24,702 bases of DNA from positions 1 through 24,702 of IMG/VR virus record IMGVR_UViG_2713897075_000003. The stretch is one strand, 5' to 3'. The translations under genes were made by a program, and so were the position numbers. This DNA comes from a virus (taxonomy: Duplodnaviria; Heunggongvirae; Uroviricota; Caudoviricetes). Below are positions 1 to 24,702 of this stretch, piece by piece. Every line of letters starts with the position of its first letter. Positions within the stretch are counted from its first letter, which is position 1. Under the pieces are notes generated by a model that saw only the letters and a list, made by a program, of their open reading frames with translations, made no database searches and was not told the DNA's origin.

Positions 1-385
1 AATATAGGGGCAAATCCAATTCCCCACTTCGGGCATCATTGATGACATGAGTGATCACACCAAAAACAGCATTACTGCCCGTGTATCCATCGTCATCTAC
101 TGGTAACGCCTCTTTCTTCCCGGTGCTTAAGTCCTCCAGGTGCTGGCGCGGATACTTCCTGTATCTCTTTATGCAATATTCACCCTCCATAGCGCACACA
201 AGCAGAGAACCATCAACCGGAGTAAGCGAGGAATCAACCACCAGCAAAGCTCCCTGCAATATTCCCTCACGGTGATGGCTATCAGCTGCCCGCATGAAGT
301 AGGTCGCTGAAGGATGTCTAATTATCTGCTGATCAAGAGAAATTCGGCTTTCAACATAATCCGCCGCAGGAGAAGGGAAGCCCAT
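1..385 (-). CDS. umuD: UmuD'-like S24 peptidase (already-truncated UmuD' form, similar in organisation to P1 HumD); 3' end beyond window
   Basis: Minus-strand ORF starting ATG at 385 (RBS GAGGT 8 nt upstream). Translation MGFPSPAADYVESRISLDQQIIRHPSATYFMRAADSHH...GEYCIKRY...AVFGVITHVIN matches the UmuD/MucA hallmark CGFPSPAADYVE...HPSATYF...GDSM...GEFTVKK. Ser (ADSH) and Lys (IKRY) of the catalytic dyad are retained. The protein starts at the position of the UmuD->UmuD' cleavage site. No stop before the window edge. Confidence 0.75.
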   Translation of the reverse strand, partial: MGFPSPAADYVESRISLDQQIIRHPSATYFMRAADSHHREGILQGALLVVDSSLTPVDGSLLVCAMEGEYCIKRYRKYPRQHLEDLSTGKKEALPVDDDGYTGSNAVFGVITHVINDARSGELDLPLY

Positions 386-403
386 AGCGTTTTACCTCAA
401 TGA

Positions 404-449
404 TACTGTTTATTCATACAGTATACATTGAAAAGGCATAGTTTGTGAA
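404..449 (-). promoter_or_regulatory. SOS promoter: LexA box TACTGTTTATTCATACAGTA (404-423) overlapping a -10 TATACT (420-425), with -35 TTCACA (444-449)
   Basis: Perfect CTGT-N8-ACAG palindrome 19 bp upstream of the UmuD'-like start. On the minus strand TTCACA-18 nt-TATACT fits a sigma70 promoter whose -10 overlaps the box. Confidence 0.75.
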
Positions 450-508
450 AGCGGGGTTTGTAGGCGCGCCACGCTGGGGGCTAATCACATTTCTCCCCCA
501 TCTTGCCG

Positions 509-760
509 TTATTTTTTTGGTGCATCCTCGTTCTGATACACCGGATCGCTCCCTTTTGGCAACTGGAGGCTTAACTGCCGGTAGTGCCGTAGCCGTTCCA
601 TGAAATAGGCGCGCAGGTTTTCCGGTTGCTCACGGGCCACCTGCTCTGCAATCACAGGTATATTCAGCCGTTCTTTGTAAGCAACGCCGCTGGCGGCAAG
701 GTCTACGTTCACCTTGTCTCGCTCTTCCTGGCTTTTAGCTGCTATATTTCGATCTGACAC
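509..760 (-). CDS. Hypothetical small protein (83 aa)
   Basis: ORF track 509..760; GTG start preceded by GGAGG at 7 nt spacing; charged, protein-like composition. Confidence 0.5.
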
Positions 761-2669: not shown

Positions 2670-3038
2670 TCACTCTCCTTTCCCATGAAGCATAGCGGCG
2701 CGGCAGGCATTCCAGCCTGTAGCGTATGCAGCCGCTTTGCTGCTGCCTTCAACTGGCGCATCCTGCCAATACATTTCTTCCGGCACTACCTGCACCTGAG
2801 GGGTGGCGTAGAGTGGAATTCCTCCCCCTCCACCAGAAAATTCATTGCGAGCGTTATACTCACGACCATCTGCGTCATCACGCATCCACGCCACCGGTTC
2901 TGCTTCCAGCGATGCCAGCGCGATACGAAACACATTGGCAAGCAGGCTGTCTGAAGATTGGTTATCGTGCGCCGGGTCGCTCAGGAAGCCTGTGATGAAT
3001 GATTTAATCTCCGCACGTTCTTTGGTAATAGTGGTCAT
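2670..3038 (-). CDS. Hypothetical protein (122 aa), MTTITKER paralog with poly-Gly linker
   Basis: ORF track; N-terminus MTTITKERAEI...IALASLEAEPV; 33-bp DNA repeat with the start region of 1396..2394; RBS GAGGA. Confidence 0.5.
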   Translation of the reverse strand: MTTITKERAEIKSFITGFLSDPAHDNQSSDSLLANVFRIALASLEAEPVAWMRDDADGREYNARNEFSGGGGGIPLYATPQVQVVPEEMYWQDAPVEGSSKAAAYATGWNACRAAMLHGKGE

Positions 3039-10709: not shown

Positions 10710-11288
10710 ATGCAGAAACAGAGTTATTGGGAGAAACAGAGACAAAAAGCCATGCAAAAATTGGCTGACCCAGCCTGGCGAGAGGAACAAAGGGCAAAGC
10801 GCCTTCAACAAGCTTTACGCCAGCAGCAGCGAGCGAAAGAAAAAGCCTCATCGCCTGAATATCGGCAAAAGAAAATTGAAAAAGCAAAGCAATATGAACA
10901 GCGGAGAAAAGAGAAGGCTGTATCAGCTCCGTCCAAAAAAACACGCACGTCACGCGGCCTGAAAGGAAGATCACTCACAGCCGATGAACGCCGGATACAG
11001 ACCGCTATCGGTACTCTCCCCTGCATTGCCTGCCATATTCACGGGCAACATAGCCCAGTGGTATCCCTGCACCATATCTTCGGGAGAACGGCAGAGAACG
11101 CGCATAAATATGTTCTCCCTTTGTGTAAATGGCACCACCAGTACGCAGCGCCAGCCGAGGTCCGAGAACAATATCCCTGGCTGGTCCCTGTTCATGCTGA
11201 CGGAAAAATAGGCGGAAAAGCAGATTTCATGCGGCACAATGCCGATGAAATGGCGTTGTATCAGATGGCGATTGAATTGATAAATTAG
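10710..11288 (+). CDS. Ref-like (P1 recombination enhancement function-type) HNH-like nuclease (192 aa)
   Basis: About 95-aa highly basic, low-complexity N-terminus followed by a compact Cys/His core (LPCIACHIHGQHSPVVSLHHIF...LPLCKWHHQ). Architecture matches what I recall of P1 Ref / DUF968; no alignment was run. Confidence 0.55.
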   Translation: MQKQSYWEKQRQKAMQKLADPAWREEQRAKRLQQALRQQQRAKEKASSPEYRQKKIEKAKQYEQRRKEKAVSAPSKKTRTSRGLKGRSLTADERRIQTAIGTLPCIACHIHGQHSPVVSLHHIFGRTAENAHKYVLPLCKWHHQYAAPAEVREQYPWLVPVHADGKIGGKADFMRHNADEMALYQMAIELIN

Positions 11289-11833: not shown

Positions 11834-11914
11834 GGCACCTTAGAAAAACGGGTGCCGGGATTGGAACCCCGGATAATGTCAAAGGCGACACAGACGCCGA
11901 AAGCGTCTTTTTTT
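11834..11914 (+). ncRNA. Candidate structured small RNA / 3' UTR element ending in an intrinsic terminator; possible c4-like antisense regulator of the downstream icd-like/ant operon
   Basis: Hairpins GGCACC(11 nt)GGTGCC and CCGGG-ATTGGAAC-CCCGG followed by the terminator hairpin. The loop ATTGGAAC is complementary to GGTTCC (11997-12002) and GTTCCAAC (12017-12024) in the leader of the downstream operon. No expression data. Confidence 0.25.
11893..11914 (+). terminator. Rho-independent terminator (GACGC-cgaaa-GCGTC followed by T7)
   Basis: 5-bp GC-rich stem, 5-nt loop, seven consecutive T residues. Confidence 0.6.
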
Positions 11915-12099
11915 GTGTCATGCCATCGCACAGCCATACGTAGCGTTTAGCTCAGAGATCAATGGTAGTGCTGGCTGGGCTGCCGAAAGGCAGGCCGGTT
12001 CCCTTTGACGCCGGTAGTTCCAACCCAGTCAGTGCTACCGCCATTGAGATTGGAACCTCACGCGGTAGCTCCTTAACTTAGTCAAAGGAGGCTGCCAAT

Positions 12100-12315
12100 A
12101 TGGCTACTATCCCTACCCCAACTCATTCTGAATTTATCTGGCGTTTCTATTCCTGCCAAAAACACCTGTATATCTGCGTCATGGCTGCTACCGAAGCAGA
12201 GGCGCGCTCATACCTTCCCAAAGAACCCTGCATTTTTGCTGCTCGCTTCACTCTTGATGCGATGGAGATCCTCAATTACTGGAATCTACCGATGAACTGC
12301 GTGGAGGTGCACTGA
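12100..12315 (+). CDS. Small ORF (71 aa) translationally coupled to the antirepressor gene; icd-like position
   Basis: Strong RBS AAGGAGG 8 nt upstream of ATG 12100; its stop overlaps the ATG of the Rha gene (ctgATGaat). Confidence 0.5.
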   Translation: MATIPTPTHSEFIWRFYSCQKHLYICVMAATEAEARSYLPKEPCIFAARFTLDAMEILNYWNLPMNCVEVH

Positions 12316-13256
12316 TGAATCTGTCCATCTCTCAAAAAGCGACAATGACCAGCATTGAGATCGCGGAACTGGTAGGAAGTCGCCAAGATAGTGTGAAGAG
12401 AACTATCGAAACACTGGCTAAAAAGAGTGTGATCCAATTTCCACAATCTGTGGAAATTGAAAATAAACAATCAGTTGGCCCTCGTCGATTTTCCAAGGCT
12501 TACATATTTGAAGGCGAACAAGGAAAACGAGACAGCATCATTGTCGTCGCGCAGCTCTCTCCGGAATTCACCGCCCGGCTGGTGGACCGCTGGCGCGAAC
12601 TGGAGAATGCCCGGGTACAGTTAAAATCAAAAGCCGAAATCCTGGCTGAAATGGCGCAAATGCATCTTGAGCATGAACGCCGGATCAACGCCGTAAATGC
12701 CCAGGTAGCCGAGGTATCAGCACAAGTATCGATGGTCGCTGAAACACTCGAGCAAATAAAGAAAGGCAATATTCCGGAAGGCTACATTGGCTACCGCCAG
12801 CTGGCGGCGAAATGTGGCCTGACTGAAGCCAAATGTCGCAACCTGGTTAACGCTTTCCGGATTCCCACCGATACGCATGAGTTTTTAACTCCAGATGGTT
12901 TGCTTGCGCGACGCTCCATTGTGGCCCTGGCCCCCTTCCGGAAAGCCTTTAAGCAGGTGATGTCGGAGGCAGAACCACGCAATAAACGCTGGTATCATCC
13001 AAAGATGGGGATGTTTCAGGCAATCCACCATCCTGTGCCTGAAAGCCCAAAGGATAATCTGTCACTACATACCGTCAGAGAGAAGATCAGGACTGGATAC
13101 GCAACAGTGTGTCGTCGTTCTTCCTGGCCTGAAGGTATATGGGTGTGGCCCGAAGGTGGATCACGAAAGCACTGGCGCACCATCCGTGACGGGAAAATCC
13201 ATGCTATTGATTTAGCTCCAGAGGATGTTATTGCTATGGACTGGATTGTTAGTTAA
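12315..13256 (+). CDS. Phage regulatory protein Rha / antirepressor (Ant-like), 313 aa
   Basis: N-terminus MTSIEIAELVGSRQDSVKRTIETLAKK...RRFSKAYIFEGEQGKRDSIIVVAQLSPEFTARLVDRWRELE is typical of Rha-family antirepressor N-domains. Confidence 0.7.
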   Translation: MNLSISQKATMTSIEIAELVGSRQDSVKRTIETLAKKSVIQFPQSVEIENKQSVGPRRFSKAYIFEGEQGKRDSIIVVAQLSPEFTARLVDRWRELENARVQLKSKAEILAEMAQMHLEHERRINAVNAQVAEVSAQVSMVAETLEQIKKGNIPEGYIGYRQLAAKCGLTEAKCRNLVNAFRIPTDTHEFLTPDGLLARRSIVALAPFRKAFKQVMSEAEPRNKRWYHPKMGMFQAIHHPVPESPKDNLSLHTVREKIRTGYATVCRRSSWPEGIWVWPEGGSRKHWRTIRDGKIHAIDLAPEDVIAMDWIVS

Positions 13257-17463: not shown

Positions 17464-17823
17464 TCATACACCAACCAGGCTTTCAAGAGGAATGCCAAAC
17501 TGGGAATGTAAACGACGAATCATAGGTAACGTTAAATTTCGTGTCCCATTTAGCACTTCGTAAACACGATTTGACTTACCAATCGCCGGTTCCAGATCCT
17601 TCACGGTCAGCCCTTGCTGTTCCATACGGAATTTAATGGCTTCAATAGGTGATGGTGGCTCAATTGGGTAATGCTTTTTCTCGTACTCTTCAATGAGCAG
17701 GCACATTACTTCAAAGAAATCGCCTTCCGGTGTGTTCATTTCCGGTTCGTTATCGAACATCGGTTCGACCGCACGCAGTGCGGCCTCATAATCTTGTTCT
17801 GTACGGATAGGTTTAATGTTCAT
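17464..17823 (-). CDS. higA: HigA-like antitoxin (HTH, 119 aa)
   Basis: Immediately downstream of the HigB-like gene (3-nt gap); C-terminal HTH region GLTVKDLEPAIGKSNRVYEVLNGTRNLTLPMIRRLHSQFGIPLESL resembles HigA-type antitoxins. Confidence 0.65.
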   Translation of the reverse strand: MNIKPIRTEQDYEAALRAVEPMFDNEPEMNTPEGDFFEVMCLLIEEYEKKHYPIEPPSPIEAIKFRMEQQGLTVKDLEPAIGKSNRVYEVLNGTRNLTLPMIRRLHSQFGIPLESLVGV

Positions 17824-17826
17824 GAT

Positions 17827-18129
17827 TTACTCCAGTTCTATTGTATCCGCTTCAATGGCATCGTATTCCTTATGTGTTCCAATAAACTTAACGAACATCC
17901 ATCCTCGCTGATAAGCAATTGCGACAATTAACCTGTAATCATTTCCCTTAATATTGAACACCACGCGCCTGTTTTTAAGGATGCTGGCTGTCCGGTACTG
18001 TTCTTTGATCTCAGCCGGATTTTTCCAGTCAGCCTTTGTTGCTTCATCAACCCATGCCTTTAATGGCTGTTCTGCATCGGGATTCTTCGCCCAGAAATCC
18101 CTTAGTGTTTTTACCGAAATTATTTTCAT
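17827..18129 (-). CDS. higB: HigB-like toxin, RelE/ParE superfamily (100 aa)
   Basis: Internal ATG of track ORF 17827..18186 preceded by GAAGGA. MKIISVKTLRDFWAKNPDAEQPLKAW...YRTASILKNRRVVFNIKGNDYRLIVAIAYQRGWMFVKFIGTHKEYD matches the HigB pattern (...VFN.GGN..R......IR.V.TH.EYD); toxin precedes antitoxin as in higBA. Confidence 0.7.
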   Translation of the reverse strand: MKIISVKTLRDFWAKNPDAEQPLKAWVDEATKADWKNPAEIKEQYRTASILKNRRVVFNIKGNDYRLIVAIAYQRGWMFVKFIGTHKEYDAIEADTIELE

Positions 18130-18159
18130 CACAGATTCCTTCTCGCTGAAAGTATAGTA

Positions 18160-18205
18160 GTCCCAATATGGGACAATGTAAAGCACTTTAGTCCCATGCT
18201 GGGAT
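18160..18205. promoter_or_regulatory. Two palindromic operator-like sites in the higBA promoter region (GTCCCAATATGGGAC and TCCCATGCTGGGA)
   Basis: Two TAGTCCCA...TGGGA palindromes 31 bp apart, directly upstream of higB and divergent from the 18275 operon. Confidence 0.45.
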
Positions 18206-24039: not shown

Positions 24040-24702
24040 TTAACCTAACTTCGCCCAGGTATCACGCAGCCCAACGGTGCGGTTAAATACCGGTTTTTCC
24101 GCCGTAGAATGGCGGCTGTCGAGGCAGAAATAACCTTCACGCTCAAACTGGAATGCTTTACCCGCTACCGCTTCTTTCAGCGACGGTTCAGCAAAGCCTT
24201 GTTTGATCACCAGCGATTCCGGGTTAATCACCGACAGGAAATCATCCGCAGCACCTGGGTTCGGCACGTTGAACAGACGATCGTACAGGCGGATTTCAAC
24301 CGGCAGCGCATGTGCCGCGCTCACCCAGTGAATAACGCCTTTCACTTTACGACCATCTGCCGGATCTTTGCTTAAGGTGTCGGCGTCATAAGTACAGAAG
24401 ATGGTGGTGATATTACCTTCGGCATCTTTCTCCACGCGTTCAGCCTTAATGACGTAAGCATTACGCAGACGCACTTCTTTACCCAGCACCAGACGTTTGT
24501 ACTGCTTGTTAGCTTCTTCTCGGAAATCGGCGCGGTCGATCCAAATCTCACCGCTAAACGGCACCTGACGGCTACCCATTTCCGGTTTGTTTGGATGGTT
24601 CGGCATGGTGACCATTTCGCCTTCGCCCTGGTAGTTTTCGATAACCAGTTTCACCGGATCGATAACCGCCATTGCGCGCGGGGCATTTTCGTTGAGATCT
24701 TC
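24040..24702 (-). CDS. glnS: Glutaminyl-tRNA synthetase, C-terminal part (5' end beyond window)
   Basis: Translation ...[101 protein letters not shown] is near-identical to the anticodon-binding domain of enterobacterial GlnS; the ORF runs to the window edge. Confidence 0.9.

Follow-up and report, generated by a model that had tools for sequence, protein, structure and literature searches.

In Escherichia coli, Gly25 of UmuD is the residue bared by RecA-stimulated cleavage at Cys24-Gly25. The HumD protein of P1, as described by McLenigan et al. 1999, reportedly dimerises, substitutes for UmuD' function, and partners the host UmuC to give a translesion polymerase resembling Pol V. The gene humD, the pre-processed form of its product and its control by LexA have been on record since 1999. 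The gene has been described as a LexA-regulated SOS gene that forms a cluster with phd-doc (PMC9603915). Other translesion functions linked to the SOS response are found on plasmids and ICEs, e.g., mucAB, rumAB, and impCAB (PMC7092418, PMC11541004).

Here, we analyse the first positions of a stretch of viral DNA of 24,702 nucleotides (hereafter the window, meaning the whole of this stretch). Taken together, the results described below indicate that positions 19-449 are very probably the humD locus of a P1-related phage-plasmid of the RCS47/D6 type, encoding a pre-processed UmuD' under the control of LexA and clipped at its 3' end by the insertion sequence IS2.

The humD coding sequence and its pre-processed start

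The coding sequence occupies positions 19-385 of the minus strand (codons 1 to 122 and the first base of codon 123) and specifies a pre-cleaved UmuD'-like protein of the S24 fold. Its translation from the ATG at 385-383 opens MGFPSPAADYVESRISL, and the product continues as MGFPSPAADYVESRISLDQQ... Just upstream of the start codon, the sequence contains a Shine-Dalgarno motif (GAGG, 398-395) and an in-frame TAA (394-392, i.e., 9 nt before the ATG), and because of this stop codon no N-terminal arm can be encoded. The glycine at residue 2 of the product (M-GFPSPAADY) lines up with Gly25 of the full-length UmuD of MG1655, so that M1-G2 faces its C24|G25 pair, and with residue 1 of UmuD' in the crystal structure 1umu. 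An earlier reading of this locus, made from the sequence alone and called hereafter the sequence-only reading, had placed the start of the product at the segment that follows the autocleavage site of UmuD, and was right in this respect.

We found that the gene is humD itself, and not a novel homolog; this is a known gene, for which hundreds of P1-like plasmids already have an annotation. The product matches the HumD equivalog profile of NCBIfam (NF051876, "HumD family translesion DNA polymerase") with 201.8 bits for a cutoff of 120, over profile positions 1-124 of 129, and Pfam PF00717 with 35.3 bits for a cutoff of 23.3. Its matches in the PDB include structures of UmuD' (1umu, E = 3.4e-23), 1i4v (1.7e-22), and 8gmt (3.8e-22). 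When all 128 codons read are considered, protein identity is 95% to HumD of RCS47, P1, P7, and SJ46, and 92% to that of D6. When one considers the part that precedes the IS2 junction, 2-3 of the 122 residues differ from HumD of P1 or RCS47 (about 98% identity). At the DNA level, the window is 99.3% identical to RCS47 over positions 14-1500 and 90.7% identical to P1, and matching DNA is present in around 650 plasmids of PLSDB and in 693 of 5,426 complete genomes of E. coli. The sequence-only reading had presented the gene product as comparable to P1 HumD: the description as a UmuD'-like protein under its own LexA box stands, but the resemblance is more than that of a comparable protein, given the profile score and the 95% identity.

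The wider family shares these traits. A protein search returned 603 clusters at E <= 1e-5, many of them named HumD family, from Citrobacter, Enterobacter, Salmonella, and Klebsiella. Among the best 120 homologs of these 603 clusters, 103 open with M-GFPSP and 107 carry the motif [ED]FDD.P. We used an alignment of 98 HumD sequences (A4), drawn from homologs P0001-P0120, to analyse the conservation of individual positions. Position 36, which corresponds to the catalytic Ser60 of UmuD, is a serine in 60 of the 98 homologs, a threonine in 37, and an alanine in one, and the GDSM motif around this position has decayed. The equivalent of Lys97 in UmuD, Lys73, is kept in 96 of the 98. The drift of the nucleophile from Ser to Thr in over a third of the close homologs fits a relaxation of selection on self-cleavage, as would be expected of a protein that can do without it.

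LexA operator, predicted promoter, and upstream neighbours

A 20-nt palindrome lies upstream of the humD start, at positions 404-423, reading TACTGTTTATTCATACAGTA on the plus strand and TACTGTATGAATAAACAGTA on the humD strand (423-404). It shows no mismatch to the LexA operator (SOS box) pattern TACTG-N10-CAGTA and is the sole exact match in the 24.7-kb window, where shuffles give 0.01 expected by chance. The same site is again the only one retrieved when one mismatch is allowed (chance expectation of 0.38) and when the pattern is reduced to CTGT-N8-ACAG (0.24 expected). We rejected a chance match at 404-423, since an exact site contrasts with an expectation of 0.01. A promoter scan places a predicted sigma-70-like promoter on the minus strand at 420-449, with 10 of 12 consensus positions: a -35 hexamer TTCACA (449-444), an 18-nt spacer, and a -10 hexamer TATACT (425-420) that shares 4 nt with the LexA box. 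The overlap between a perfect SOS box and a -10 TATACT, already pointed out in the sequence-only reading, was thus recovered exactly. The alignment shows the same predicted promoter sequence in RCS47 and D6.

The operator is conserved across relatives with very different surroundings. Its arms (TACTGTA...ACAGTAT) are invariant in all eight P1-like loci that we aligned, whereas the spacer and flanks vary. In the phages PhiR41_1 and Cyrano, which are part of this alignment, the flanks upstream of the box are unrelated and the arms are still kept. We then surveyed 13 HumD-like phage genes, with protein identity to HumD down to around 45%, and 12 of them have an exact TACTG-N10-CAGT[AT] ahead of the start codon, at a distance of 32-62 nt. 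The box of the window is also identical to the umuDC operator of E. coli (read from MG1655) at 17 of 20 positions, and its equivalents in P7 ("regulation of humD expression"), phiKO2, and P1 ("regulatory region of lxr and humD") are recorded as LexA sites. Because of the position and the conservation of the operator, control of humD by LexA is the only reasonable reading of this region, in agreement with the literature; LexA binding and promoter activity are predicted here from the sequence.

This organisation suggests how the gene would work. In an undamaged lysogen, host LexA bound at 404-423 would cover the -10 hexamer and, given the geometry of the site, presumably the start of humD transcription. 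Upon DNA damage, the activation of RecA would lead to the self-cleavage of LexA and humD would be transcribed. Translation from the ATG at 385 would then give a product that starts at the equivalent of UmuD Gly25, i.e., that is already in the UmuD' form. HumD would skip the RecA-dependent self-cleavage that normally delays the assembly of Pol V, and would join the host UmuC at once.

The gene directly upstream of humD is hot (509-760, minus strand), whose product is homologous to the theta subunit of DNA polymerase III (105.1 bits with NCBIfam NF008207 and 113.9 bits with Pfam PF06440). This layout, in which hot is followed by humD without lxr, is the same as in RCS47, D6, and the plasmid pEC213_2. 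The comparison of window positions 386-508 with P1 (L002, 3373-4125) shows that the P1 gene lxr ("LexA regulated function") is missing here and in RCS47 and D6, and P7 and SJ46 have two other ORFs in its place. The segment adjoining the LexA box is a swap-prone spot, and has been listed among the variable regions (PMC9603915).

One could ask if the LexA box serves mainly a divergent gene, such as lxr in P1, with humD being mostly read through from hot and the genes upstream of it. In the P1 record, lxr and humD share the LexA site, and a predicted PhumD is put elsewhere, inside lxr; P7 and SJ46 carry divergent ORFs at this same place; and we found no canonical terminator between hot and humD, just a G5/C5 hairpin without a T-run. 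Yet, searches of the window by tblastn with Lxr, Phd, and Doc of P1 and with Upf94.2 and Upf93.6 of P7 gave nothing significant, and the only plus-strand ORF adjoining the box is a 52-aa GTG ORF antisense to hot. Furthermore, the distance between the box and the humD start is fixed at 32-37 nt in relatives whose upstream neighbours are entirely different. We therefore regard a box devoted mainly to a divergent gene as quite unlikely, and keep humD as the target of LexA. The place of the gene in a larger transcription unit is another matter. It had been put at the end of the early operon, a placement that finds no support here: the consensus of the P1 C1 operator has no match in the window at up to 3 mismatches, and the P1 record has a late promoter before hot.

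IS2 at codon 123 and the acidic tail of HumD

The humD ORF runs for 128 codons up to the window edge without a stop codon, and is in this sense longer than UmuD' (115 residues), as had been noted. We found that positions 1-18 of the window correspond, on the minus strand, to the outermost 18 nt of the terminal inverted repeat of IS2, TGGATTTGCCCCTATATT (the reverse complement of these positions), which reads inward in the element and out of the window, and forms the junction with humD. The match to the IS2 terminus is complete (18 of 18 positions), for 0.01 chance matches expected even if three mismatches are allowed, and the T at position 18 can be assigned to either humD or IS2. The homology of all relatives to the window ends at around positions 14-18. 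A 43-mer opening with the same 18 nt has 100% matches in 3,070 genomes of E. coli, under features annotated as IS2 transposase. In the plasmid p503025_52 (L003), these 18 nt form the extreme end of an element inserted within a gene, with a 5-bp target duplication (CGCAA) on its flanks. The part of IS2 visible in the window is limited to these 18 nt, and the transposase orfAB, the second repeat, and the target duplication lie outside. To judge from the junction, IS2 is inserted at codon 123 of humD (TTT to TTG).

The native HumD has 129 aa. Aligned with UmuD', it shows one deletion, four extra residues ahead of the last beta-strand, and a tail of 10 residues (SGEFDDCPVI) that extends past the end of UmuD. 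The length of the native protein, with its insert and tail, and the presence of IS2 at window positions 1-18 thus explain why the ORF seems to overrun UmuD' at its C-terminus. In the window copy, the native tail is replaced from codon 123 onwards, and the protein reads ..SGE-LDLPLY before the window edge. The conserved tail ([SG]GEFDDCPV[IM]) and the length of about 129 aa are therefore not found in this copy. This missing tail is a secondary lesion in a member of the HumD family, not evidence against its membership.

If the element is a canonical IS2, it would close the frame seven codons further (FQTSVIT), with a predicted end LDLPLYFQTSVIT and a product of 135 aa. In such a product, the read-through of IS2 would replace the last seven residues of the tail (FDDCPVI) and leave the UmuD'-like core intact. 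To the left of window position 1, one would expect the 1,331-bp IS2, a 5-bp target repeat (GGAAT or GAATT), and then TTGATGATTGTCCGGTTATTTAA followed by phd-doc. If one takes the orientation from p503025_52, humD and the IS2 transposase gene would converge. When a synthetic humD::IS2 junction was compared by megablast with all complete genomes of E. coli, none of the records reached a query coverage of 80%, and the predicted 135-aa read-through product was absent from the protein collection in an exact look-up.

The overrun had been taken as a hint of a C-terminal extension or of a different downstream partner. A genuinely longer variant of HumD, either extended by a new C-terminal segment or joined to a new partner encoded downstream, would account for an ORF of 128 codons that has no stop in the window and exceeds the 115 residues of UmuD'. 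However, the divergence from all relatives starts exactly at the 18-nt terminus of IS2, the native HumD already has 129 aa, and the read-through of a canonical IS2 would stop seven codons further. The genes found downstream in relatives do not favour this variant either. Intact P1-like relatives have phd-doc downstream of humD, N15 and phiKO2 have a terminator and then sop/par genes downstream of the HumD-like gene, and umuC is next to humD in none of the relatives examined (P1-likes, N15, phiKO2, and other phages). A longer variant is thus highly improbable. Given the IS2 terminus and the presence of phd-doc in relatives, we also discarded the idea that a novel C-terminal domain, or umuC as a partner, lies past the window edge. 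The umuC/polV-type gene that the sequence-only reading proposed to look for downstream finds no counterpart in these relatives. The lack of a linked umuC in relatives fits the published account, in which HumD works with the UmuC of its host. Since the overrun is the IS2 junction, the proper annotation of this copy is that of an interrupted humD rather than of a longer variant, which is a correction to the record. An ORF fused out of frame downstream, which the sequence-only reading had counted as evidence against itself, is close to what we found, with IS2 joined at codon 123, but the reading of the core as humD stands.

The interrupted humD has one additional change. Codon 71 (173-175, minus strand) is TGC (Cys), where the aligned relatives have CGC (Arg). 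The R71C change is specific to the window copy and is located two residues before the conserved Lys73. The clipped allele may be weakened or inactive, and it is quite conceivable, if somewhat doubtful, that it is impaired. The loss of the EFDDCPV[IM] tail and R71C could even abolish the function entirely, in which case the locus would be a decaying remnant with a LexA box regulating nothing useful. Each of the tail residues (E122, F123, D124, D125, C126, P127, and V128) is indeed kept in at least 89 of the 98 HumD homologs, and position 71 is Arg in 93 of them and never Cys. A lesion in humD would also be tolerated because the gene is dispensable for the lytic growth of P1 (PMC10695390). On the other hand, the region aligned with UmuD' is intact to its last residue, and UmuD' works without such a tail. 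RCS47 has exactly the same promoter, operator, ribosome-binding site, and start codon, and the gene of the window has a single missense change and no frameshift. We hold a dead allele to be a serious possibility that falls short of being probable, within a locus that we continue to interpret as an interrupted humD.

The tail itself deserves attention. It is acidic, strongly conserved in HumD, and without counterpart in the cleavable UmuD, and its function appears to be unstudied. In a sample of the 150 best representatives at 50% identity, an acidic tail with a hydrophobic end is present in 7 of the 19 complete pre-truncated proteins and in none of the 38 that retain the N-terminal arm, with a Fisher p of 2e-4 that does not take phylogeny into account. 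The consensus of the tail is GEFDDCPVM, and some variants end in ..EFDDTPF and ..FEFHDNLPF. These variants resemble the C-terminal tip of SSB (..MDFDDDIPF, read from MG1655), whose role has been described (PMC5872125). From this resemblance, one might speculate that the tail of around 10 residues is a short linear motif imitating the acidic-hydrophobic tip of SSB, an idea that we consider unlikely. If true, a stand-alone, pre-processed UmuD' could dock on the sites of host replication and repair proteins that bind the SSB tip, or compete with SSB for them, and the IS2-clipped allele of the window would be a natural tail-less mutant. Our literature search found no paper tying the tail of HumD to the tip of SSB. 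The AlphaFold2 model built on the 98-sequence alignment has a mean pLDDT of 53, and below 50 in the tail, and is too poor to tell a free tail from a packed one.

The rest of the element and comparison with known systems

The window also encodes other functions. Positions 10710-11288 (plus strand) encode a homolog of Ref, a RecA-dependent nuclease (PF16786, 119.5 bits; background in PMC4713147), which makes it the second function linked to RecA and the SOS response on the same element as humD. A HigB toxin (PF09907, 116.8 bits) and an adjoining ORF resembling an HTH antitoxin are encoded at 17464-18186 (minus strand). They count as the second toxin-antitoxin pair of the element; phd-doc, which is usually adjacent to humD, was not found in the window. 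Two RNAs were detected above the gathering score of Rfam, isrK at 11835-11913 (plus strand, 62.7 bits) and a C4 antisense RNA at 11958-12045 (plus strand, 77.1 bits), and the latter is followed by a Rha-like ORF at 12315-13256. The region 11835-12045, together with this ORF, looks like the c4/icd/ant immunity region of the immI type of P1. The ORFs at 1396-2394 and 2670-3038 (minus strand) both open with MTTITKER... and have the motif ALASLEAEPV in common. They belong to an ead/Ea22-like family according to the annotation of relatives, and neither has a match in Pfam. At the other end of the window, positions 24040-24702 (minus strand, running off the edge) contain the 3' part of glnS, the gene of the glutaminyl-tRNA synthetase, on the phage-plasmid backbone. 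The fragment matches the anticodon-binding domains of Pfam (108.9 and 92.8 bits), and the annotation of related plasmids includes a complete glnS. A methionyl-tRNA synthetase is found among the neighbours of humD in PhiR41_1 and Cyrano. Together with the glnS of the window, this shows that genes of aminoacyl-tRNA synthetases recur on these elements.

The system closest to the one described here is that of P1 (HumD, AAQ14073), which is the same gene, with 3 of 122 residues differing before the IS2 junction and the same M-GFPSPAADY start. Both genes are carried by phage-plasmids of the P1 family and have the LexA box at the same distance from the start. The two loci differ in that P1 has lxr between hot and humD, whereas hot is directly upstream of humD in the window, as in RCS47 and D6. 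The -10 hexamer of P1 is also weaker (GTGTAC.. where the window has TATACT). Finally, the window copy has lost its last seven residues to IS2 and carries R71C. As for IS2, an element of the IS3 family, the first 18 nt of its terminal repeat are identical to window positions 1-18, which contain just the tip of the element.

More distant HumD-like proteins are found in other phages, e.g., gp26 of N15, gp23 of phiKO2, gp28 of HK140, and the one of the Hafnia phage yong1. They share with HumD the pre-truncated start and the EFDD.P tail, and most have an exact LexA box, but their protein identity is only 45-69% and their neighbours are different. In phiKO2 and N15, dinI is upstream and sopB/parB downstream of the HumD-like gene. 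The adjacency to a homolog of dinI, which encodes a RecA-filament-binding protein, is seen in phiKO2 (L012, 881-1584) and HK140 (L013, 610-1590), and phiKO2 has its annotated LexA site between the two genes. Hence, different phages put together small pairs of SOS-modulating genes.

HumD shares the S24 peptidase fold with UmuD/UmuD' of E. coli, the accessory subunit of DNA polymerase V, and is 42% identical to it over 119 residues. The window HumD keeps the equivalents of Ser60 and Lys97 of UmuD (S36 and K73), and its operator is of the same type as that of umuDC. In contrast, UmuD of E. coli is encoded in an operon with umuC and made as a precursor of 139 aa, which carries an arm of 24 residues and is cleaved at Cys24-Gly25. 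HumD has neither the arm nor a linked umuC, and differs further by its four inserted residues and its acidic tail of 10 residues. The systems mucAB, rumAB, and impCAB follow the former organisation, in that they associate a cleavable precursor of the UmuD type with their own polymerase of the UmuC type, whereas humD stands alone and codes for an already processed product.
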